The position numbers and the translations under genes were made by a program. The notes beneath the pieces are model-generated. The model was not told where the DNA came from. It ran no database searches and saw only the letters and a list, made by a program, of their open reading frames with translations. This document shows positions 11,351 to 44,766 of a stretch of 44,766 nucleotides of DNA, piece after piece (position 1 is the first letter of the stretch; the number at the start of each line of letters is the position of its first letter). Source of the DNA: a virus; the IMG/VR virus record IMGVR_UViG_3300037511_000572; one strand, given 5' to 3'.

Positions 11351-11752
11351 ATGAAGAAGCTCATCCTCCTGCTGGCGCTGCTCGGGCCCGTTTGGGCGCC
11401 GGCCGTGCTGCGCGCGGACGACGCGGTGTCCATCGGCACGGGGGCCCGGGTCCAGGTGTCGACGTCGACTCCCACCCTGCTCTTCGCGGCCAACCGCTCG
11501 GCCAAGGGCACTAAGATCAAGGTCAACCCGATCGACGGGACCCAGACCGCGGCCTCCGCGGACGCGATCCTGGTCGGGACCTCGTCGAGCGCGTCGGACT
11601 ACTCGACGTCCCTGACCACCGGGACCTTCCGTGTGCACGCCGGGGACAAGTGGTTCGCGCTGGACGGGCCCACGTCGTTCTACCAGGGGCCGCTGTACGG
11701 CCTCGCGGTGTCGACCGGCCCGCTGAACGTCGACAGGCTGCAGACGAAGTAG
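11351..11752 (+). CDS. Small secreted protein (signal peptide)
   Basis: AGGAGG RBS. N-terminus MKKLILLLALLGPVWAPAVLRADDA has a typical Sec cleavage motif. Confidence 0.6.
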   Translation: MKKLILLLALLGPVWAPAVLRADDAVSIGTGARVQVSTSTPTLLFAANRSAKGTKIKVNPIDGTQTAASADAILVGTSSSASDYSTSLTTGTFRVHAGDKWFALDGPTSFYQGPLYGLAVSTGPLNVDRLQTK

Positions 11753-11762
11753 GGAGGGCGCC

Positions 11763-12026
11763 ATGGCGGACACGCAGGTATACTACTCCGGGCTCCTGAG
11801 CACGATCGACGCGCGCATCTCCGCGCTGATCACCAGCCAGGAGGTGGACTACCAGGTCGGCAACGTCCGCGTGTCGGCGAACCAGAAGTTCGAGCAGCTC
11901 ATGAAGATGCGCGAGCACGTCATCAAGCGCATGGCCGAGAAGCCGTACGAGTCGTGGGAGGTCGTGCAGACGGACTTCTCCGCGTTCGGCGAGAACCTCG
12001 GGACGTTCGTGGACGAGAACCCGTGA
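11763..12026 (+). CDS. Hypothetical protein (possible head-tail connector component)
   Basis: 87 aa, located between the capsid and connector genes. Confidence 0.5.
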   Translation: MADTQVYYSGLLSTIDARISALITSQEVDYQVGNVRVSANQKFEQLMKMREHVIKRMAEKPYESWEVVQTDFSAFGENLGTFVDENP

Positions 12027-13971: not shown

Positions 13972-14028
13972 GCCGGAAAGATAAACCGAGACGCCGACCC
14001 GCGAGGGCGGAAAGGGAGGATGGAGCCA

Positions 14029-15123
14029 ATGTCAGAGCCCACCCAGAAGTCACTAGTGGAAGAGCAGCTGAAGGACTTGAAGGACGCGGGCCTGCCCGTC
14101 AGCAAGGGCATCCGCACGTTCAAAGACAACCAGCGCAAGACGAGCAAGTTCAACGAGAGGGTCCTAACGTTCTGGCTGCCGCAGTGGGCCAGGCAGGCGG
14201 CGATGAACTTCAAGGACATCTCCGGCGCGCCGAGCATGGGCTGGCTGAGGGCCTCCGCGAAGGGTCTGCCCGTGGTCGTGTGCGGCATCGGGCCGTCGCT
14301 CGACGGGGACCTCGAGACCCTGCGCAAGGCCCAGTCCAACCTCATCATCGTCGCCACCGACGCGGCGGTTCGACCCCTCCTGGCCGCTGGCGTGAAGCCG
14401 CACCTGGCCGTAAACTTCGACTGCAAGCAGAAGCAGCACACCCTCTTCGACGGGCTCAACAGCCTGACGTGGGACATCCCGCTGCTCGCCAACTCGTGCG
14501 CGCACCCGGACATGCTATCGGCCTGGCTCGGCCCGAAGCTCTACTTCAACATGCAGCACTTCGGGGTCGACTTCATGGACGCGGTGCTGCCGAACATCTA
14601 CCCGGAGTTCCAGCCCATGTCCAACCACGGGACCGTCGGCAACTCGGCGATCCTCGTGGCCTACCAGATGGGAGCGCGCCACATCATCCTCTCCGGCATG
14701 GACCTGTGCTACCAGAAGGTCGGCGACGGGTTCAAGTACCGCTGCAGGGACCACGCCTGGCGCGAGGCCGACGAGCAGGCCGGCCTACCAGCGGGCTGGG
14801 TCGAGAAGGAGAACAAGGTCCTCTACGACAACGACGACAGGCTCGCGCACACGTTCGAGGTCAAGGTCAAGGAGCGGGCGTTCCTGGTGGACGACCCACT
14901 CGACCAGTACCGCAAGATGGCCCTCGGGATCATAGGCTCCCTAGGCAACGTCGACGTAGTAGACTGCGCGCCGGACGGGATACTGAAGGCCTCCGGGGTC
15001 CGCGGCATGACGATAGGGGACGCGGTCACGGAGTTCGCGGCGCGCCCCATTGAGCCAGGAGAGGCCACGATTCTGCACCTGCCTCGGCTACTGCCGAGAG
15101 CAAAAGACGCCAAAGGCGCTTAG
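14029..15123 (+). CDS. Maf / MptE-like (DUF115) putative glycosyltransferase
   Basis: VVVCGIGPSLD ... LIIVATDAAVRPLLAAGVKPHLAVNFD ... GTVGNSAILVAYQMGARHIILSGMDLCY matches the DUF115 core. The ATG at 14029 has better RBS spacing than the track start at 14020. Confidence 0.75.
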   Translation: MSEPTQKSLVEEQLKDLKDAGLPVSKGIRTFKDNQRKTSKFNERVLTFWLPQWARQAAMNFKDISGAPSMGWLRASAKGLPVVVCGIGPSLDGDLETLRKAQSNLIIVATDAAVRPLLAAGVKPHLAVNFDCKQKQHTLFDGLNSLTWDIPLLANSCAHPDMLSAWLGPKLYFNMQHFGVDFMDAVLPNIYPEFQPMSNHGTVGNSAILVAYQMGARHIILSGMDLCYQKVGDGFKYRCRDHAWREADEQAGLPAGWVEKENKVLYDNDDRLAHTFEVKVKERAFLVDDPLDQYRKMALGIIGSLGNVDVVDCAPDGILKASGVRGMTIGDAVTEFAARPIEPGEATILHLPRLLPRAKDAKGA

Positions 15124-15133
15124 GAGGAGACAC

Positions 15134-15322
15134 ATGGAAGCGATCAAGGAGACGCCGCCGCCCATCGAGAGCGTGGCCGCGGCGCAGAAGAAGGAGAAGC
15201 TGGTGTTCAACCCCGGGCAGCTCGTGCCGCTCAACGGGGTCTGGTTCCAGATCGAGCGGGTCGAGAAGGAGGGCCTGTTCCTCAAGGCCGTCGGGTTCAC
15301 GAAGAACAGGGGGCGGAAATGA
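15134..15322 (+). CDS. Small hypothetical protein (62 aa) inside the glycosylation cassette
   Basis: AGGAGGAG RBS. Overlaps the next ATG (ATGA). Confidence 0.5.
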   Translation: MEAIKETPPPIESVAAAQKKEKLVFNPGQLVPLNGVWFQIERVEKEGLFLKAVGFTKNRGRK

Positions 15323-16332
15323 ACATCGTACACGTGACCACGACCGACCCCGCCGGCTCGGTCATCAACTTCGTGAACGCGGTCAACCGGCACACGCCGC
15401 ACCGCGCGAGGCTCATCACCACGAACAGGATCGAGGAGTACGACTTCCCGGCCGACCTACACTGGATCATGGACGGGGGCGACGAGATGTTCGCCCTCCT
15501 GGAGCAGGCGGACGTCATCCACCTGCACAAGGTGGACAACGAGTTCGAGCTAGAGGTCGACATGCCCAAGCTCGGCGTAGTCCGCAAGCTGAGCATCGCG
15601 GAGCTCCTCAAGCAGTTCCCGCAGAAGAAAGTGGTCTACCACATCCACGGCCACCCCTACGAGAGGGGCAACGTGGAGGAGAACGCGGCCAACTACAAGG
15701 CCCTCGGCGGGAGGGTGCTTTGCTCGACGCCGGACCTGGAGGAGATGTACAAGCCGCATTACGACGGCGTCCAGTACTTCCCGAACTGCGTGCCGGTGAA
15801 CGACGTGACCTACCTGCCCAGGCCGGTGGACGCGCCGATCCTCGGCTCAGACGGCGTTGCGCGGTACCTGGTCTCGCAGACGCCCACGCACGCGGTCCTG
15901 AAGAACTGCCACGTGATCGAGCAGGCCGTGCGGAACGTGGCAAAGAAGCACCCCGTGGCGTACGACAAGGCCTGGAACCTGCCCCAGCACTTCGCACTCC
16001 GGCGCAAGCGCATCTCCTCGGTGGTGTTCGACCACATCGAGGGGTATTACGGGCTTTCCAGCCTAGAGGGCCTGAGCATGGGCAAGCCCGTCATCGCCGG
16101 CCTGTCCGACTACACCATCTGCTCGATCGCGTCGTTCTTCGGGATCACCCCGCAGGACCTGCCGTGGGTCGTGGCGAGGGACCAGCAGCAGATCGAGGAG
16201 AAGCTGGACCTCCTGTTCAGCGACGAGGCGTACCGGCATGCGGCCGGCAAGGCGTCCCGCAAATTCATGGAGGAGGTCTGGAGTGATCGAGTTATCGGAC
16301 AACGACTGGCCGCATTCTACTCCTCCCTGTAA
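15319..16332 (+). CDS. GT-B fold glycosyltransferase (GT4-like)
   Basis: C-terminal FDHIEGYYGLSSLEGLSMGKPVIAG resembles the GT4 E-x7-E region. About 337 aa with a two-Rossmann-domain layout. Confidence 0.8.
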   Translation: MNIVHVTTTDPAGSVINFVNAVNRHTPHRARLITTNRIEEYDFPADLHWIMDGGDEMFALLEQADVIHLHKVDNEFELEVDMPKLGVVRKLSIAELLKQFPQKKVVYHIHGHPYERGNVEENAANYKALGGRVLCSTPDLEEMYKPHYDGVQYFPNCVPVNDVTYLPRPVDAPILGSDGVARYLVSQTPTHAVLKNCHVIEQAVRNVAKKHPVAYDKAWNLPQHFALRRKRISSVVFDHIEGYYGLSSLEGLSMGKPVIAGLSDYTICSIASFFGITPQDLPWVVARDQQQIEEKLDLLFSDEAYRHAAGKASRKFMEEVWSDRVIGQRLAAFYSSL

Positions 16333-17050
16333 GGGGGAGCCGCCGGCCAACACGGTCGGGATCGTAATCCCCGTCCGCGACGGCCTGAAGTTCCTGAAGC
16401 TGAGCCTGTACTCCGTGCTATACTTCACGCCGCACCCGTACATGCTGACCATCGTGGACAACATGAGTGGGCTGAAGACCAAGAAGTTCATACGGTCATT
16501 CGAGCAGAATCACCCGACGGACGTCCTGCGCTACGACGAGCCGTTCAACTTCGCGGCCCAGGCCAACCTCGGCCTCCGGAACGTGTTCTCCAGGGGGGCG
16601 CAGTTCGGGCTCGTCCTGAACGCGGACACCATCGTCGAGCCGGACTGGCTGGGGCTGCTGGTGGAGCGCATGCTCCAGGTCAAGGAGGCCGGCGCGATCG
16701 GGCCCGTGTCCCAGGTCGGCAACCCGGAGCAGACCCTGCAGGGCAAGCGCGGGGAGCGGCTGATGCAGGTGCGCCGGCTGTCCGGCTTCTGCATGATGGT
16801 CCGCAAGGCCGCGTTCGAGCAGTCCGGCGGGTTCGACGAGTCCTTTGCCGGCGGCGGGTTCGAGGACTGGGACCTGTCGCAGCGACTGCTGGACCTCGGG
16901 TGGAAGCTGCTGGTCGACGAGCGCGTGCTGGTGTGGCACTTCCACAAAGCGTTCCGCAGGTCCCCGGAGCACGACGTGGCCATGCGCACGAACGAGCGGC
17001 GGTTCTTCGAGAAGCACCCGAAGGTCGCGGAGGAGGTGCGCCGTGCATAG
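16283..17050 (+). CDS. GT-A fold glycosyltransferase (GT2 family)
   Basis: GIVIPVRDG, LNAD (DxD-like), GFCMMVRKAAFEQSGGFDE and FEDWDLSQRL motifs. GTG start with GGAGGAGG upstream. Confidence 0.8.
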   Translation: MIELSDNDWPHSTPPCKGEPPANTVGIVIPVRDGLKFLKLSLYSVLYFTPHPYMLTIVDNMSGLKTKKFIRSFEQNHPTDVLRYDEPFNFAAQANLGLRNVFSRGAQFGLVLNADTIVEPDWLGLLVERMLQVKEAGAIGPVSQVGNPEQTLQGKRGERLMQVRRLSGFCMMVRKAAFEQSGGFDESFAGGGFEDWDLSQRLLDLGWKLLVDERVLVWHFHKAFRRSPEHDVAMRTNERRFFEKHPKVAEEVRRA

Positions 17051-17573
17051 GCAGGCGCTGGACTTCCTGGAGCGGATGAAGCAGCAGTATTGGGACGTGT
17101 TCAAGGCCAAGCGCGTGCTCGAGCTCGGCAGTCTGGACATGAATGGCTCGCCCAGAGAATTCTTCTGGGCCCCGCAGGACTACGTCGGGGTGGACTGGCG
17201 CGAGGGCAAGGGCGTCGACGAGGTCAGCATGGCCCACGAGTACCGTGGCCGGCACGACGAGTACTTCGACTGCGTGGTGTCCACCGAGATGCTGGAGCAC
17301 GACCCGAAGTGGAGGGAAACCCTCCAGCGCGCGGTCGAGCTGCTCCGACCGGGCGGCCACATTGTGCTGACGATGGCCGGAACCGGCAGGCCTCCTCACG
17401 AAGTGGGCGTGGCCCCGGGCGAGAATCCGTACTACGAGAACCGGACCATCGAGGATATCGTCCAGCACGTCACGTCGCTCGCGCACTTCAGGATGGTGCA
17501 CGCAGAGGACAACCCGAACCCGGGCGACTCGTACTTTCTGTTCTACTGCAAGACCAAAAAGGAGGGCCTCTAA
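17043..17573 (+). CDS. Class I SAM-dependent methyltransferase
   Basis: VLELGSLDMNG (motif I-like), DCVVSTEMLEH and LLRPGGHIVLT. GTG overlaps the upstream stop. Confidence 0.7.
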   Translation: MHRQALDFLERMKQQYWDVFKAKRVLELGSLDMNGSPREFFWAPQDYVGVDWREGKGVDEVSMAHEYRGRHDEYFDCVVSTEMLEHDPKWRETLQRAVELLRPGGHIVLTMAGTGRPPHEVGVAPGENPYYENRTIEDIVQHVTSLAHFRMVHAEDNPNPGDSYFLFYCKTKKEGL

Positions 17574-31161: not shown

Positions 31162-31469
31162 ACCTATCACTGGAACAACGGCTCACCAGGGTCGAGAATA
31201 AAGTGCGCATCATGCGCGCTCTAGTCACCAAGATGTACCAGACGTTCTACGCCGGCCAGATCAGGAGGGCGAACACCTACGGGCGCATGCTGGCCAAGCT
31301 CAGGTACAACACGCGAGCCGTGGAGCGCAGGCTCCCGTCATTCCTGCGCCTCGCAAGGATCGCCTCCGGCCTGTCCCGCGGTAGGTCCGTTGTCACGCTC
31401 GACCCGCGAGAGTACAACCAGCTCAGGGCACTGCTGAAGAGGAAGGTGCCGTTCCGGCGTAGGCCCTAG
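31158..31469 (+). CDS. Hypothetical basic protein (103 aa)
   Basis: ATGA overlap with the upstream gene. Its stop is shared in CTAG with the convergent gene. Confidence 0.5.
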   Translation: MNLSLEQRLTRVENKVRIMRALVTKMYQTFYAGQIRRANTYGRMLAKLRYNTRAVERRLPSFLRLARIASGLSRGRSVVTLDPREYNQLRALLKRKVPFRRRP

Positions 31470-31837
31470 AACTCCTTGCCGCCGTGCATGTGGGGCCGTC
31501 CCGCGTTGAACTCCATCTTCGCGAGGACGGCCTCACTGATTTTCAGGCCGGTCTTGCCGGCGTAGGACATGATCCTGATTATGACGTCGGCTAGTTCCTC
31601 CTCCAGGCCGGAAAATTCCGGTATGTGGTCCGACTGCGGATTGCCGTGTCGCAAGAACTCGAGGGCCTCGCTCAACTCGGAGTGCATGAGGGCTATCTGC
31701 TCGGCATGGTTCGGGTCCTTGTCCCACCATCCCTTGTCCCTTGCTGTGTTGAACGCCGCGGCCTGCAGGAGCCCGAACGCCTCCTTGAACGCCTCGCGCG
31801 CTAGCTTACCGACATACTCCTTCTTTTGGGTTTCCAT
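31466..31837 (-). CDS. MazG-like nucleoside triphosphate pyrophosphohydrolase
   Basis: HSELSEALEFLRHG ... EELADVIIRIMSYA is an all-alpha NTP-PPase (EExxE/D-type) pattern. GAGGAGGA RBS before the ATG at 31837. Confidence 0.75.
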   Translation of the reverse strand: METQKKEYVGKLAREAFKEAFGLLQAAAFNTARDKGWWDKDPNHAEQIALMHSELSEALEFLRHGNPQSDHIPEFSGLEEELADVIIRIMSYAGKTGLKISEAVLAKMEFNAGRPHMHGGKEF

Positions 31838-33624
31838 CTCTCCTCCTCGGCGGCCCATTCCTTCTTATCTGCCCAACTCTTGTCCGTCACGGACACGTCC
31901 ACGCTGATCTTGACTGGGAACGTTATGTTGTCCTCCAGCCCGTCGACCAGCGCATGCTTCGCGTCCCATACCTGGTCCCTGCGGACCTCGATGCCGAGCT
32001 CGTCGTGCACGGTTATGAACGGATGCGCGTCCAACCCGACCAGGTTCTTGAACGTGTTGTTTATCCCGCGCTTCATGACGAGAGCCGCCGGGCCCTGGCA
32101 CAGGACGTTGGCGGCCTTGTAGCAGAGGTCCTTCGGGACATGATACGTCCTGCCAAACTGGTCCGTTACGTAGCCGTCCCTCAGCAGGTCGGCCTGAGAC
32201 TTCAGGAGGAAGTCCCTCGCCTGCGGCACCTCGCTAAAGAACTTGCCCTTGAGCTGCCTGGCCTTGTCCACCGTCACGCCCATCCGCGCGGCACACCTCG
32301 CTACGCCCATCCCGAATATGAAAGAGAAGTTAAGCTCCTTGGCCTGAAAGCGGATGCGCTTTATCTCGTCCTTCGACTTGCCGTCCATGCAATTCTTCCC
32401 GAACAGGCGATAGGCATTGGCCGTGTGGAAGTCCACACCCCTGCGCAGGTCCGCCAATATCCCTGGGTCGCCGACGTGGCAGGCGAATATACGGAACTCT
32501 ATCTGGGAGTAGTCCGCAAAGAGGAAGACGTAACCAGGCCGCGGGACCACCGCCCTGCGCACGAGCCCCGGGTCCTTGTTCATCTCCACGTTGCCGCCGC
32601 GCCCGCCTCCAGGAATGTTCTGGAAGTTCGGGTCTGTGCAGGAGAACCTTCCTGTTTTGATTCCGCCCTCCTCAGAGCCGAAGGGCCAGAAGTGCGGGTG
32701 AATCTTCCCGTCCTTGTTCTTCTCCAGGAACGGCTGGAAGTACGTGCTGTCTATCTTCTGGATGCTGCGCCAGTTCATCAGGGTCGATACAAACGGGTGG
32801 TCGGCATATGGCCTGAGCTCTTCGGCGCCCGTCGGCATCTGGCCCCGCGCGTTCTCCTCGCCGGTCTTAATCCCTAGGCTTTGGAGCACACTGCTTAGCT
32901 GGGCCGTTGACGCCTGATTGAACTTCACCCCGGCCAGGTCATACAGCTTCTTTTCCAGTTCCAGTTTCTTTGGCCCCAACTCTCTGAGCATCCTCTTGCA
33001 ATAGTCTAAATCCAAGTTTATGCCCCACCGTTCGAGCTCTACGATGTTGGGTATCAGCTCCTGCTCTATGTCGTACACACGTTTTTGCGGGCCGTTGACT
33101 ACGTGGCCGAATTTCCAGTTCGCCAGGAGCGTGAGGTCGAGGTCCTCTTCCAGATACGGCTCGACCATCTCTTTAGGCAAGCAGGAGTAGTTCACCTTCT
33201 CCTTCGCCTCTGGGGTCTTGGCCTTCCTGCGCAGCGCGGACAGGTATGCCTTTACCGCCTCCTCGTTCTGGGGCTCTCGGCCGAAGTGCCTCTTGCCGAC
33301 GCCCTTCAGCTTGAGATCCTGCTCATACTCATAGTTCATGTAGCACATGAGCATGGCGTCATGCACGCGGCCGCCGACCTTCACCCCCTCCTTGCGGGAT
33401 ACCGACAGGTCATACTTCACGTTCCACCCGACCTTCTCTACTGGGCTGGCCATGATTTCGCACGCGCGCTTCCACTCTGGCGTCCCGGGCCTGGCAAGCA
33501 GGACATTCCCGTCCTCGTCCTCAAGGCCCAGTAGAAACGGCTTCGCCTTCCCGACCCACACCTCCAGGCCCTCGGTCTCGTAGTCGAAGGCGACCCTGCC
33601 CGACGAGAATGGTTTCCTAGGCAT
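31801..33624 (-). CDS. polA: Family A DNA polymerase with 3'-5' exonuclease domain
   Basis: Exo I FDYETEGL. Motif A FADYSQIEFRIFA. Motif B RFQAKELNFSFIFGMG. Motif C ITVHDELGIE. Confidence 0.9.
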   Translation of the reverse strand: MPRKPFSSGRVAFDYETEGLEVWVGKAKPFLLGLEDEDGNVLLARPGTPEWKRACEIMASPVEKVGWNVKYDLSVSRKEGVKVGGRVHDAMLMCYMNYEYEQDLKLKGVGKRHFGREPQNEEAVKAYLSALRRKAKTPEAKEKVNYSCLPKEMVEPYLEEDLDLTLLANWKFGHVVNGPQKRVYDIEQELIPNIVELERWGINLDLDYCKRMLRELGPKKLELEKKLYDLAGVKFNQASTAQLSSVLQSLGIKTGEENARGQMPTGAEELRPYADHPFVSTLMNWRSIQKIDSTYFQPFLEKNKDGKIHPHFWPFGSEEGGIKTGRFSCTDPNFQNIPGGGRGGNVEMNKDPGLVRRAVVPRPGYVFLFADYSQIEFRIFACHVGDPGILADLRRGVDFHTANAYRLFGKNCMDGKSKDEIKRIRFQAKELNFSFIFGMGVARCAARMGVTVDKARQLKGKFFSEVPQARDFLLKSQADLLRDGYVTDQFGRTYHVPKDLCYKAANVLCQGPAALVMKRGINNTFKNLVGLDAHPFITVHDELGIEVRRDQVWDAKHALVDGLEDNITFPVKISVDVSVTDKSWADKKEWAAEEERWKPKRRSMSVS

Positions 33625-34096
33625 TGTTTCCAGCTATATTCGTGCGACGGCGTCGCGTGCGGAGGCCTGTGAAACCCTTCAGACTATGGTTCCTCTGCAG
33701 GCGGTTCAAGAGCCTTTTCCGAGTGCTTTTTATGCGGTTCGGCCGCATGGAATGCTCCCACACCCTTATGACGTGCCAGCCGCGCCTCCACAGCGCCTTC
33801 ACCGCCCGGACATCCCTGCGCATGTTCGCCTGGACCTTGCTGACCCAGAAGTCCACGTTCGACTTCGGCCTCTTGTAGTGCGTCGGGCACCCGTGGAAGA
33901 AGCAGCCGTGCACAAATATGGCGGTCTGGGCTGACGCCACCTTGAAGTCCGGCCGGCCCGGCAGTTCCTTCGCGTGCTCAGTGAAGACCTCCTCGGCGTC
34001 GAGCAGCATCCCGCGCATGAGGAGCTCCGGCTTCGTCCCGGTCGAGCGTATGCGGGACATGATCCAGCTACGCTTCTCTTTTGTCACCGTATCCAT
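33617..34096 (-). CDS. vsr: Very-short-patch repair (Vsr) T:G mismatch endonuclease homolog
   Basis: RSWIMSRIRSTGTKPE, LPGRPDF, IFVHGCFFHGC, FWVSKVQANMRRD and GWHVIRVWEH align with E. coli Vsr motifs. Confidence 0.85.
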   Translation of the reverse strand: MDTVTKEKRSWIMSRIRSTGTKPELLMRGMLLDAEEVFTEHAKELPGRPDFKVASAQTAIFVHGCFFHGCPTHYKRPKSNVDFWVSKVQANMRRDVRAVKALWRRGWHVIRVWEHSMRPNRIKSTRKRLLNRLQRNHSLKGFTGLRTRRRRTNIAGNNA

Positions 34097-34646
34097 GTCG
34101 TTTCCTCATGTATACAGCGCGCACTGCACCGCTTGAGCCCAGCGTGTTCACGCGCAGCAGCTCGAATCTGTTCATCCGAGCCTGCGTGTTAAACAGGCCG
34201 TTGACTGCCAACGGGGGGCCTACCTGTAGTATGACTGGCTCTATGGTCATGACTATCTGATCCACCAGGTCGTGCTGCAGGAAGAGCCCGTAGGTCGCCG
34301 CGCCGCCGCACAACATCATCTTGGTCTTATGGTTGTTCTCCAGGAAGTTCAGTATTTCGCCCGGCTTTGGCAGCAGGACGCCAACCTGCCCCTTCTGCTT
34401 CGTCCTTATGCCTGGGTCCCTGGACACCACCGCTACCGGCTTGCCAAGATTTGGCATTAGGTTCGCCGTTCGCGACCCGACTATGAGCATGCCCGCGTCC
34501 GCGAGGTCCGAATTGAAGAATTCCTTGTCCTCGGCGCTGGTCCATCCGCCTTTAGACACTTGGTTCGGGGAAGAGTCTTCCGCGGTGGATATGCGCCCGT
34601 CCAGGGACATGCACGCCACCATCTTTACCCAGGCCCTGTCGTTCAT
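34068..34646 (-). CDS. Dihydrofolate reductase-like protein (RibD C-terminal domain family)
   Basis: ACMSLDGRIS ... MLIVGSRTA ... MMLCGGAATYGLFLQHDLVDQIVMTIEPV. ATGA overlap with the upstream TS homolog. Confidence 0.7.
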   Translation of the reverse strand: MNDRAWVKMVACMSLDGRISTAEDSSPNQVSKGGWTSAEDKEFFNSDLADAGMLIVGSRTANLMPNLGKPVAVVSRDPGIRTKQKGQVGVLLPKPGEILNFLENNHKTKMMLCGGAATYGLFLQHDLVDQIVMTIEPVILQVGPPLAVNGLFNTQARMNRFELLRVNTLGSSGAVRAVYMRKRHGYGDKREA

Positions 34647-35497
34647 ATGACCAGCCTCGGGCCCGTGATCGCGGGCCACGGCTTGTACCACTCGTTGACC
34701 TGGCGGAACAGGTTCTTGGACAGCTCGTTGTCTCCGGCCATGGCGGCCATGACCATGTCCGGGAGCAGCTTGAGATAGAAGTCTCCCAGCTCCATCCTGG
34801 CCTGCCCCATGGACCGCGCGACCATCTGCACCGCCGGGTCCCACTGGTCCTCGTAGAGGTGGGCGTTGGAAATCAGGTAACCCACCTCACCAGGCCGCAC
34901 GCCCAGCTTGCACGCCATCAGCTCCTGTATTATCCTGAATCCGAGTATGTCATGAGGGAAACCGAAGTACATGTCCGCCGAGCGCTGGAGGACGTTCATG
35001 TGCAGCCTGCCGTCCATTATGTGGAAGTGCCAGGTCAGGATACACGGGGCGTTCGGCCCCGGCTTCACCAGGTCCGTGTCCGGCTGCCACGAGATGAGAA
35101 CTGCCTGCCGGCTCGTCTTGTCCTTCATCAGCCTGTCCAAGACGCCCTGCACCTGGTCGACGCCGTGCGCATGCCTCCAGCGATAGCCCGTGGCGGATCG
35201 CACGACCCCGTCCTCGTCCGCGAACTTGTCCCAGGTGCCGAAGCCATGCTGCCTCATAAGCGCCGGGGACTTCGCGCCGGACAGGAACCAGACCGCCTCG
35301 ACGCACGACCACAGCGGGCTGATGTTCCGCAGGTGGACTATGGGGAACTGAAACGGCTGGGTGTGGAAGAACAGCGCGTTGACCGCGCGCACCCACTTGC
35401 CCGTCCTGTCGTTCTTCGTCGGTGGGGCCTCTAGAATCCTGGACAGCGCCATGCCGTACTTCGAATCGAAAAGGGTTACGCGCCCTTGGTCTTGCAT
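34643..35497 (-). CDS. Thymidylate synthase (ThyA) family homolog with Asp at the Asn177 position; candidate dCMP methylase/hydroxymethylase
   Basis: KNDRTGK, VEAVWFLSG, SRQAVLISWQ, NAPC (catalytic Cys) and QRSADMYFGFPHDILGF (E. coli has QRSCDVFLGLPFNIASY). ATG at 35497; GTG at 35506 is an alternative start. Confidence 0.8.
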   Translation of the reverse strand: MQDQGRVTLFDSKYGMALSRILEAPPTKNDRTGKWVRAVNALFFHTQPFQFPIVHLRNISPLWSCVEAVWFLSGAKSPALMRQHGFGTWDKFADEDGVVRSATGYRWRHAHGVDQVQGVLDRLMKDKTSRQAVLISWQPDTDLVKPGPNAPCILTWHFHIMDGRLHMNVLQRSADMYFGFPHDILGFRIIQELMACKLGVRPGEVGYLISNAHLYEDQWDPAVQMVARSMGQARMELGDFYLKLLPDMVMAAMAGDNELSKNLFRQVNEWYKPWPAITGPRLVI

Positions 35498-35811
35498 TTC
35501 TTCCACCTCCTGAGCATCAACTCCAGCCTAGCCAGCGCGTCCCAAGCCGCGTGCGCGGCGTGCGGGAGCCCCGACTCCTCGTCGTCCCTCTCATACGCTT
35601 CCTCTAGCAGGTGGCGCCCAAGTGCGGCGGTGTACCTGTTCTCGCCGTCCTTGACGAACTGCCAGCCGCCCCTGGTATACTTCATCTTGCCGAACGTGCC
35701 CACCGCGGCCACGGCGCGCAGCGCCATGCCGAAGTCCAGCAGCAGGCTCACGTCCGGCTTCCCGCCGTCCAGCTTCATGCCCTTCTTATGAGGGTTTGGT
35801 TTTCTCGGCAC
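35476..35811 (-). CDS. DUF5664 (dATP/dGTP diphosphohydrolase N-terminal-like) protein
   Basis: DGGKPDVSLL ... FGKMKYTRGGW ... RYTAALGRHL ... DDEESGLPHAAHAAWDALARLEL matches the family pattern. Confidence 0.7.
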   Translation of the reverse strand: MPRKPNPHKKGMKLDGGKPDVSLLLDFGMALRAVAAVGTFGKMKYTRGGWQFVKDGENRYTAALGRHLLEEAYERDDEESGLPHAAHAAWDALARLELMLRRWKKCKTKGA

Positions 35812-40427: not shown

Positions 40428-40631
40428 CTACGCCAGCTGCACCTGCACCGCGGACAGACCCTTCGGGCCCTGCTTGACCTCGAACTCGACCGCCGCGTTC
40501 TCGACCAGCCCCTCGCGCTTGGACTTGTCCACAAGCGCGGAGTGGTGCACGAACACCTCCTCGCCGCCCTCGTCGTTCTTGATGAAGCCGTAGCCCTTGA
40601 CCTGGTTGAACCACTTGACCTTGCCCTTCAT
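40428..40631 (-). CDS. csp: Cold-shock protein (CspA family)
   Basis: MKGKVKWFNQVKGYGFI (RNP1) and EVFVHHS (RNP2). 67 aa with an AGGAGG RBS. Confidence 0.9.
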   Translation of the reverse strand: MKGKVKWFNQVKGYGFIKNDEGGEEVFVHHSALVDKSKREGLVENAAVEFEVKQGPKGLSAVQVQLA

Positions 40632-41047
40632 TGTGATACCTCCTGGATTTGATCGTACCTCACTCCGCACTGGGCCAGAACCTCCAGGGCCTGCTGCGCC
40701 TCTGGGTCGTCCCACCTTCGCGCGAACACCACCCTTTCCGCCCCGACGTTCACCATCATCCTTGCGCAGGACAAGCATGGAGACATCGAGGTGTAGAACG
40801 TCGCCCCAACAAGTGCCACGCCGTTCCTTGCCGCCTGCACTATCGCGTTCTCCTCCGCGTGGCAGTAGTGCCTCTTTGTGGTCTCCTGGCTCTCGTCCCA
40901 GCCCTTCGGGGTCCCATTGTATCCGGTAGACAGCACGATGCCGTCGACGGTTACCACGCACCCCACTTTCGTTCTCGGCCATGTTGACCTCGTAGAGACA
41001 AGCTCCGCCATGCGGAGGAAGTATACTTCCAGACTAGGCCGCGACAT
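40628..41047 (-). CDS. Deoxycytidylate (dCMP) deaminase
   Basis: Zinc motifs CHAEENAI and SPCLSCARMM, with GYNGTP upstream. About 139 aa. Confidence 0.85.
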   Translation of the reverse strand: MSRPSLEVYFLRMAELVSTRSTWPRTKVGCVVTVDGIVLSTGYNGTPKGWDESQETTKRHYCHAEENAIVQAARNGVALVGATFYTSMSPCLSCARMMVNVGAERVVFARRWDDPEAQQALEVLAQCGVRYDQIQEVSQ

Positions 41048-44664: not shown

Positions 44665-44674
44665 CCCCCCCCCC
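44665..44674. repeat. C10 / G10 homopolymer tract
   Basis: Ten consecutive C at 44665-44674. The contig start (base 1) falls inside this run. Confidence 0.9.
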
Positions 44675-44766
44675 ACCACAAGATAATTTACAGGCCCAGA
44701 GACAGCTGCCGGCCGGAGCCAGGCACTGGCCTCCGCGCCCCAGGATCCGGGGCGTTGCCCGCGGGA
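44667..44766. repeat. Terminal direct repeat, copy 2
   Basis: Identical to 1-100. It duplicates the 3' end of CDS 22..306, so that fragment should not be counted as a separate gene. Confidence 0.95.

Follow-up and report, generated by a model that had tools for sequence, protein, structure and literature searches.

The viral genome IMGVR_UViG_3300037511_000572 (IMG/VR; 44,766 nucleotides, hereafter the window) carries on its minus strand, at positions 31466-35811, a block of six overlapping genes built around a thymidylate synthase (TS) homolog. We read this block, with a probability of roughly 0.6, as a pre-replicative pathway for 5-methyl-dCMP, by which 5-methylcytosine (5mC) would replace cytosine in the phage DNA, as in Xanthomonas phage Xp12. 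From upstream, the genes encode a stand-alone DUF5664 protein, the TS homolog, a dihydrofolate reductase (DHFR)-like reductase, a Vsr-type endonuclease, a family A DNA polymerase (PolA) and a MazG-like pyrophosphohydrolase (order DUF5664-TS-DHFR-Vsr-PolA-MazG). An earlier note on this DNA had proposed, as its core, that an Asp-variant TS acts as a dCMP methylase with DHFR recycling and feeds the phage polymerase; comparison of the active-site residues, the DHFR-like character of the reductase and the gene set of phages Xp12 and PaMx74 all lend support to that proposal. As far as can be predicted, the system would be of the Xp12 kind, and new in its non-orthologous parts, its different gene order, the Vsr embedded in it and the absence of Tyr94 from its TS clade.

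The TS homolog (34643..35497, minus strand, 284 amino acids; Pfam Thymidylat_synt 3.7e-39) belongs to a family of about 45 metagenomic relatives sharing 44-70% identity, of which 25 members were aligned with E. coli ThyA, T4 gp42 and the enzymes of Xp12 and PaMx74 (residues are given in E. coli ThyA numbering). The designation as an Asp variant was justified, the FPHD motif aligning with E. coli PFNI and Asn177 being replaced by Asp in 25/25 sequences. Equally invariant (25/25 each) are the change of Leu143 to Asn, within a GPN[AV]PC motif, the retention of Asp169, within RSAD, and the replacement of Tyr94 by Thr and of Phe176 by His (residues 103 and 182 of the window TS), while His147 is Ile, Leu or Val across the family and Ile in the window enzyme. 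Also kept are the catalytic Cys146 and Arg21, Glu58, Trp80, Gln165, Arg166, Ser167, His207 and Tyr209. The C-terminal tail is ThyA-like (Y.PWP.I.GP.LV-COOH, with GPRLVI of the window aligned to E. coli KAPVAI), and its conserved 'GPxLV' end lies about 50 residues beyond the end of T4 gp42, which stops before the tail.

In metaviromes, modification is associated most strongly with positions 177 and 147, and N177D switches the substrate to dCMP (PMC8670742); the literature cited therein describes N177D/N229D mutants as converted to dCMP methylases. Metavirome contigs whose cytosine is modified are marked by Asp177 (PMC8670742; bioRxiv 10.1101/2024.12.05.627091), hydroxymethylases (T4 gp42, MilA) by an acidic residue at 143 (L143D/E), and flavin-dependent 5-hydroxy-dCMP synthases by D169N (PMC13326640). 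The enzymes of Xp12 and PaMx74 have Asn143, Asp169 and Asp177, with the C-terminal tail, like the window enzyme; the DNA of both phages contains 5mC in place of C, and the Xp12 enzyme yielded 5mdC in vivo (bioRxiv 10.1101/2024.12.05.627091). By its residues, the window TS homolog therefore bears a methylase-type signature. It differs from ordinary ThyA, having Asp, Ile and Thr in place of Asn177, His147 and Tyr94, from T4-type hydroxymethylases (Asp/Glu143, tail absent) in its Asn143 and its tail, and from 5-hydroxy-dCMP synthases of the RB69 gp48 type (Asn169) in the Asp169 that all 25 sequences share.

The window enzyme is nonetheless no ortholog of the Xp12/PaMx74 enzymes: identity is 28-31%, its neighbours are DUF5664 and MazG-like proteins instead of a PRA-PH protein, and its clade signature (T94, I/L/V147, Q165, H176, N205) differs from that of the Xp12 type (Y94, P147, L/I165, Y176, H205). 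In a scan of 1.84 billion representative proteins the clade fell into one 50%-identity cluster, from which the nearest clusters pass continuously, by way of Y94/H176 forms, to the signature of the Xp12 type; among the best 150 matches, 77 read Y-N-D-Y-D at positions 94/143/169/176/177. Among the closest representative clusters residue 94 varies (T/S/A/W/Y), with N143, D169 and D177 fixed. This gradation places the window clade inside the same broad radiation as the Xp12 type. Tyr94 is the proposed general base of TS, and its loss would imply a rewired proton-abstraction step in this clade; a further possibility is that the Thr94/His176 enzymes use a catalytic base unlike that of all studied members of the thymidylate synthase family.

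The six genes had been described as leftward and packed with overlaps, and we could confirm this in full: all are minus-strand open reading frames (ORFs) at the coordinates given here, without internal stops. The DUF5664 gene begins with GTG at 35811, preceded by GGAGG, overlaps the primase stop at 35786 and ends at 35476, within the start of the TS gene (35497, with AGGAGG upstream). The TS stop (34643) and the reductase start (34646) are fused as ATGA; the reductase stop at 34068 overlaps the Vsr start at 34096, the Vsr stop at 33617 overlaps the PolA start at 33624, and between the PolA stop (31801) and the MazG-like start (31837, with GGAGG upstream) the overlap amounts to 37 nucleotides. 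The MazG-like, Vsr, TS and DUF5664 starts each have a good Shine-Dalgarno sequence in front of them. Public gene calls differ at window positions 35452-35497 and 35778-35811, beginning the TS at Met19 (269 amino acids) and the DUF5664 protein at Met12 (100 amino acids). Conservation of the upstream residues in homologs, among them an N-terminal 'NPH..G.KLD' that supports the GTG start, and the good ribosome-binding sites favour the longer forms, i.e., 284 residues from ATG 35497 for the TS and 111 residues from GTG 35811 for the DUF5664 protein.

Hidden Markov model matches agreed with the families assigned earlier to the six genes, with MazG recognized by PHROG and motif and falling below the Pfam cut-off. 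The polymerase (31801..33624, minus strand, 607 amino acids; Pfam DNA_pol_A 9.7e-65) has a weak 3'-5' exonuclease match (DNA_pol_A_exo1, 6e-4), and is at most 29% identical to any cultured-phage polymerase and 53-86% identical to its relatives in the same slot. The synteny proposed as a check recurred in seven independent metagenomic lineages, with TS proteins 47-70% identical to that of the window and with Vsr and DUF5664 variable, which argues that the arrangement is conserved rather than due to chance. In all the eight lineages compared (the window, L011, a P0004 contig, L012, L003/4, L005=L018, L006/7 and L017) the order primase, small protein, TS, reductase, PolA, MazG-like is constant. 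The small protein overlapping the TS start is DUF5664 in four of the eight and an unrelated, itself conserved protein of 131-149 amino acids in the others (L006:9609-10016, also present in L007; L011:2443-2838; L012:9555-10004; L017, about 5952). The latter matched no Pfam or PHROG family, apart from a faint DUF1599 at 0.092, and profile-profile comparison of the L006, L011 and L012 proteins led us to reject a relation to DUF5664 or to the MazG-like protein.

The reductase (34068..34646, minus strand, 192 amino acids; RibD_C/DHFR fold, Pfam RibD_C 2.4e-13, PHROG DHFR 7e-6) had as best solved relative the Thermotoga maritima DHFR 1CZ3 (6e-8 for the single sequence). A profile of six orthologs searched against the PDB retrieved 1CZ3 at 1.3e-19 and then many classical DHFRs, with RibD-type reductases ranking lower. 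In each of the eight lineages its gene directly follows that of the TS, to which it is ATGA-coupled in the window, so that, as in the Xp12 type, a DHFR is found in cis with the TS homolog. The earlier argument that a DHFR is needed only when the folate cofactor is oxidised was examined in 57 IMG/VR loci with Asp-type TS: of the 54 loci in which residue 143 is non-acidic, 43 have a DHFR within 8 kb, as against none of the three T4-like loci with Asp/Glu143. These counts fit the argument, and are to be taken as supportive and not as conclusive, given the small number of hydroxymethylase-like loci (n = 3) and a scan pattern that favours P[HY]D enzymes.

The comparison with known systems places the window nearest to Xp12 and PaMx74 (siphophages of the Pamexvirus/Bosavirus group). 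PaMx74 has the order frd (DHFR), cd (deaminase), thyA and nucleotide pyrophosphohydrolase, followed at some distance by helicase and PolA; Xp12 is arranged alike and adds an HhH-GPD protein, and in both a PRA-PH protein stands beside the TS. The order [HhH-GPD]-PRA-PH-TS-deaminase-DHFR is nearly universal in 52 Xp12-type IMG/VR loci (PRA-PH in 50, deaminase in 49, HhH-GPD in 17). The window array likewise holds an Asp-type TS with tail, a DHFR-fold reductase, a dCMP-deaminase-family enzyme, an all-alpha NTP pyrophosphohydrolase and a PolA, has neither a second TS nor a recognisable dNMP kinase, and belongs to a high-GC genome that does not markedly avoid 4-mer palindromes. Unlike the Xp12 type, its genes are in the order given above, with the deaminase 4.8 kb off, its pyrophosphohydrolases are DUF5664 and MazG-like and not PRA-PH, its reductase scores as a RibD_C/T. 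maritima-type DHFR rather than as DHFR_1, a Vsr is part of the module, and neither the polymerase nor the remainder of the genome is related.

With T4 (gp42, the gp56 dCTPase, the gp1 kinase and glucosyltransferases) the window shares a TS homolog with Asp177 and, as predicted, modification of dCMP before replication and the pairing of a dNTP pyrophosphatase with its own polymerase. However, gp42 has Asp143 and lacks the tail, in contrast to the Asn143 and tail of the window enzyme; the window has no similarity to gp56 and no dNMP kinase, and the T4 DHFR serves a separate true TS, which is absent from the window. The 5-hydroxy-dCMP synthases of RB69, DLP3 and RL38JI resemble the window enzyme in TS fold, catalytic Cys and Asp177, and the window genome encodes glycosyltransferases as well, yet D169N and L143E are both missing and the glycosyltransferases stand outside the nucleotide module.

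As to the removal of dCTP, the earlier note had regarded both pyrophosphohydrolases as dCTPases, a role for which the comparison gave no support. The DUF5664 protein (35476..35811, minus strand, 111 amino acids) matches PF18909 at 2.1e-22 (79.4 bits against a gathering cut-off of 27). The stand-alone DUF5664 protein of Arthrobacter phage Wayne, the only characterised one, converts dNTP to dNMP and pyrophosphate and acts on dATP, dUTP and dGTP, dCTP not being used (PMC12884076). Its hydrolase activity justifies the label of pyrophosphohydrolase-type for the window protein, which we regard as a probable dNTP pyrophosphohydrolase. The family is present in 674 cultured phages of many genera, and among the eight lineages its slot is taken by the unrelated protein in half. 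The AlphaFold model of the window protein, an all-helical bundle (pLDDT 90), had no PDB match below E=1 by Foldseek, MazZ and MazG appearing only at probabilities of 0.12 and 0.03.

The MazG-like protein (31466..31837, minus strand, 123 amino acids; PHROG 3301 'pyrophosphatase' 5.6e-30) scores 18 bits with Pfam MazG, below the 22-bit family cut-off. Its ExxE...ExxD metal motif (HSELSE and EEELAD, in the form HxExxE...ExExAD) is nevertheless invariant in six orthologs, and this motif, together with the family-level PHROG match, assigns it to the all-alpha NTP pyrophosphohydrolases. Its best solved relatives are DCTPP1 (dCTP pyrophosphatase 1) proteins, matched weakly (5e-4), and its gene comes after PolA in all relatives examined. 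For neither protein was a similarity to the gp56 dCTPase of T4 found. A dCTP to dCMP step carried out by these proteins is plausible on grounds of position rather than of specificity, as a small protein always overlaps the TS start.

The earlier gene list was right in its six genes and missed a seventh of interest, a dCMP/dCTP-deaminase-family zinc deaminase (40628..41047, minus strand, 139 amino acids; Pfam dCMP_cyt_deam_1 5.1e-22, PHROG dCMP deaminase 7.9e-42), which shares its strand and gene array with the block and lies 4.8 kb upstream of the TS gene; MetaGPA defines a deaminase in cis as lying within about 3 kb. Its best solved relatives are the dCMP deaminases of phages S-TIM5 and T4 and the dCMP/dCTP deaminase of PBCV-1. 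The identity to the Xp12 and PaMx74 deaminases (33-36%) is similar to that with other dCMP deaminases and does not settle its specificity. A deaminase is also present in L005, L006/7, L012 and L017 and is absent in L003/4, where the slot is occupied by a protein with a cREC_REC (cyclic-phosphate processing receiver) domain (L003:4651-5034, plus strand; 9.8e-15). A relative of the Xp12-type deaminase, mSCD-B5, converts 5mdCTP to dTTP (bioRxiv 10.1101/2024.12.05.627091), which explains why such phages need no ordinary TS. By domain searches, the complete window genome contains no second ThyA and no ThyX, so that the Asp-type enzyme is the only TS of the phage.

The Vsr endonuclease (33617..34096, minus strand, 159 amino acids; Pfam Vsr 1.7e-21, 76 bits against a 27-bit cut-off) was correctly identified by the earlier note, which had not drawn the connection between this enzyme and 5mC. 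Residues 6-134 align with residues 6-134 of E. coli Vsr 1CW0 (5e-19), and the motifs GRPDF (with the catalytic Asp), HGCF.H, FW and VWE are all present, identifying a full-length member of the family. As in bacterial very-short-patch repair by Vsr and Dcm, the protein is colinear over its length and has both catalytic and intercalating motifs; unlike there, the genome has no C5 methyltransferase and the gene sits between DHFR and polymerase. No called gene of the complete genome contains a C5 DNA methyltransferase domain, the partner expected of a Vsr, and the only methyltransferase gene is a small one of Methyltransf_23 type in the tail region. The gene stands between reductase and PolA in six of the eight lineages (the window, L011, the P0004 contig, L012, L003/4 and L017) and is absent from the module in L005/L018 and L006/7. 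The Vsr of L003 was found as an uncalled ORF (11388-11792, plus strand; 43% identity, 2e-30) in a 400-nucleotide 'gap' between reductase and PolA, so gene calls under-report Vsr in the lineage.

Among cultured phages, tblastn located Vsr mainly in temperate phages of Burkholderia (KL3 and AH2, for example), where it presumably accompanies a Dcm-type methylase, and in unannotated gut-phage contigs; phages of Xanthomonas or Pseudomonas yielded none. In four Vsr-bearing gut-phage contigs relatives of the TS, DHFR or PolA are absent, which makes the association of Vsr with TS specific to the lineage of the window. The Vsr family is specialised for T:G mismatches arising from 5mC deamination, and its position between DHFR and polymerase, beside a TS of dCMP-methylase type, would be most simply explained by 5mC-rich DNA prone to such mismatches. 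More tentatively, and with the odds rather against it, the genome may be fully substituted with 5mC and Vsr may have been recruited into the module as a virus-encoded very-short-patch repair independent of any methyltransferase. It would then remove T:G mismatches produced by spontaneous 5mC deamination or by the phage's own deaminase, and the HhH-GPD protein of Xp12-type modules may be its convergent repair counterpart. A gene for such an endonuclease III-like protein lies just upstream of PRA-PH/TS in 17 of 52 Xp12-type modules (IMG/VR loci L019-L071; Xp12, L002:21974-22456); a canonical active site in the HhH-GPD protein was doubted by the authors of the AXL1 study.

Taken together, the pathway would start with the conversion of dCTP to dCMP by the DUF5664 protein, the MazG-like pyrophosphohydrolase or both. 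The TS homolog, to judge from Asp177, Asn143, Asp169 and its ThyA-like tail, would then methylate dCMP at C5 with methylene-tetrahydrofolate as both carbon donor and reductant, and the translationally coupled DHFR-like reductase would regenerate tetrahydrofolate, as its homology and the conserved coupling suggest. Host kinases, or a phage kinase not recognised as such, would produce 5-methyl-dCTP; the earlier statement that no phage dNMP kinase is visible holds for the whole genome as far as Pfam families go. If Xp12 and mSCD-B5 serve as a guide, the deaminase-family enzyme might draw in part on the pool of 5-methyl-dC nucleotides to form dT nucleotides, making an ordinary TS unnecessary, while the phage family A polymerase would incorporate the modified nucleotide. 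Finally, in a genome with every C methylated, Vsr would nick the T:G mismatches that follow from 5mC deamination.

Several observations weigh against this proposal. The product is predicted from three residues and their context, in a TS clade that stands apart from the Xp12/PaMx74 enzymes at 28-31% identity and whose rewired active site, Thr and His being invariant at 94 and 176, could yield a different one. Asn143 is polar, and thereby unlike the bulky hydrophobic residue to which the exclusion of water is ascribed. The dCTPase role is weakened by the substrates of the Wayne enzyme, by the wide distribution of the DUF5664 family and its replacement in half of the lineages, and by the weak DCTPP1 match. 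The distance of the deaminase from the TS gene (4.8 kb) and its loss in L003/4 count in the same direction, as does a glycosyltransferase cassette elsewhere in the genome, which leaves room for a hydroxylated base. Lastly, L006 completely avoids GTAC and three 6-mer palindromes, unexpectedly for fully protected DNA. On this 17.5-kb locus (ENA k141_62706), in which Vsr is absent, GTAC occurred 0 times against 19 expected, GGCGCC 0 against 11, TGCGCA 0 against 7.7 and GCATGC 0 against 6.2. The window has no strong avoidance of 4-mer palindromes, and neither have Xp12 and PaMx74; the test does not discriminate.

The unproven removal of dCTP, together with the restriction-site avoidance in L006, leaves room for a partial use of the modification, which we regard as rather unlikely. 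The TS homolog would still make 5-methyl-dCMP, with dCTP not being purged; the DUF5664 and MazG-like proteins would have house-cleaning or dUTPase-like functions, and the DNA would be partly methylated, or dTTP obtained through methylation and deamination would be the main output. The substrate range of the Wayne enzyme (PMC12884076), the 674 cultured phages of many kinds with a DUF5664 protein, its replacement in L006/7, L011, L012 and L017 and the missing similarity to gp56 all agree with this alternative. On the other hand, all members of the lineage have the MazG-like gene, whose product has, weakly, dCTP pyrophosphatases as best solved relatives, the slot overlapping the TS start is always filled by some small protein, Xp12-type phages achieve complete replacement of C with a comparable single PRA-PH pyrophosphohydrolase, and the window shows as little avoidance of 4-mer palindromes as Xp12 and PaMx74. 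Somewhat less probable still is a different C5 product, the T94/H176 clade making 5-hydroxymethyl-dCMP or another C5 derivative and the DNA being further decorated, for instance by the cassette at 14020-17573. The substitutions at 94 and 176 are invariant in the clade and not seen in Xp12, PaMx74, E. coli ThyA or T4 gp42, His176 also occurs in the three T4-like loci with an acidic residue 143, Asn143 is polar, and the genome encodes an MptE/Maf-like protein, a family 2 glycosyltransferase (GT2), a weakly matching GT1-like protein and an S-adenosylmethionine (SAM) methyltransferase. Residue 143 is, however, the Asn of the 5mC phages and not Asp/Glu, Asp169 excludes the 5-hydroxy-dCMP synthase signature, and the ThyA-like tail is present where T4 gp42 ends before it. 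The coupled DHFR would be needed only with folate oxidation and is found in 0/3 loci with an acidic residue 143, residue 94 varies among the closest clusters while N143, D169 and D177 are fixed, and the cassette lies between tail genes and has no close IMG/VR counterpart.

An ordinary supply of thymidylate, in which the deaminase would form dUMP, the TS homolog dTMP and the DHFR would recycle folate for canonical DNA, appears improbable. Deaminase, TS and DHFR do constitute the classical dTMP pathway, and the Pamexvirus genes are so annotated; overall the TS homolog is as similar to bacterial ThyA as to Xp12, and Gln165 and the C-terminal tail are ThyA-like. This explanation is contradicted by Asp in 25/25 at position 177, the dUMP-specificity determinant, a change that in the mutants described in the literature gave dCMP methylases, by the replacement of His147 and Tyr94, which true ThyA enzymes conserve, and by the association of Asp177 with modified-cytosine contigs in metaviromes. 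A 2-aminoadenine (Z-genome) system deserves hardly any credence. PF18909 is named after the MazZ dATP/dGTP diphosphohydrolase, which in Z phages is paired with a dedicated family A polymerase; the window protein matches this family (2.1e-22) and PHROG 801, 'dATP/dGTP pyrophosphohydrolase', and a family A polymerase lies nearby. But DUF5664 is widespread in phages with canonical DNA, and the complete genome contains no PurZ/adenylosuccinate-synthetase-like gene, no DatZ (HD) and no DUF550 domain, by which the Z-genome reading was ruled out.

Chemical evidence for a complete replacement of C by 5mC exists for only a few cultured phages, Xp12 and PaMx74, and metavirome work suggests that it is much commoner. 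An unrelated uncultured lineage following the same logic with non-orthologous parts would argue for a convergent or modular evolution of base replacement. If the 5-methyl-dCMP pathway is confirmed, the conserved Vsr in the module would for the first time tie base replacement to a repair activity dedicated to the mutations that such replacement brings about, a TS-family clade devoid of the canonical Tyr94 could inform the mechanism of TS, and the window enzyme, like other phage 5mC enzymes, may supply tools for methylation sequencing.

The nucleotide block belongs to a complete genome of an uncultured tailed phage. An exact direct repeat of 100 bp (1-100 and 44667-44766) shows the window to be a whole genome of about 44.67 kb, either terminally redundant or assembled as a circle, and it is matched by contigs of 42.6-44.8 kb in the JGI and Logan data of several samples; the source samples are JGI 3300037473 and 3300037474 and SRR12692786. 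Megablast against 50,697 cultured-phage records found no close relative of the block or of the genome, the best protein identities to cultured phages being about 30% (TS homolog 30%, PolA 29%). The genes for terminase, portal, capsid, tail and lysis functions point rightward and lie between about 3.1 and 31.4 kb, and the replication and nucleotide genes form a leftward array from 44.6 to 31.5 kb. Upstream of the block this array encodes primase/helicase-like, acidic SSB-like, AAA_24/Sak4-like and cold-shock-domain proteins and, further upstream, the deaminase-family gene, a PD-(D/E)XK exonuclease and an ERCC4 nuclease.

The glycosyltransferase cassette (14020-17573, plus strand) stands between a major-tail-like gene and the tape measure gene and comprises the MptE/Maf-like gene (PF01973, 8.6e-34), a weak GT1-like gene of 337 codons, the GT2 gene (1.8e-10) and the SAM methyltransferase gene (Methyltransf_23; PHROG 3e-29). 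No close homolog of the MptE-like gene was detected in IMG/VR, including the contigs of the relatives L017 and L018. The location of the cassette among tail genes and the lack of a close counterpart fit glycosylation of virion proteins better, and its products probably act on these rather than on DNA. A scan of 30.5-44.8 kb for promoters and terminators gave counts at chance level, the sole strong leftward terminator being at 43947-43910. Directly downstream of the deaminase lies the gene for the cold-shock-domain protein (40428-40631, minus strand, 67 amino acids), which is also present in L006/L007.

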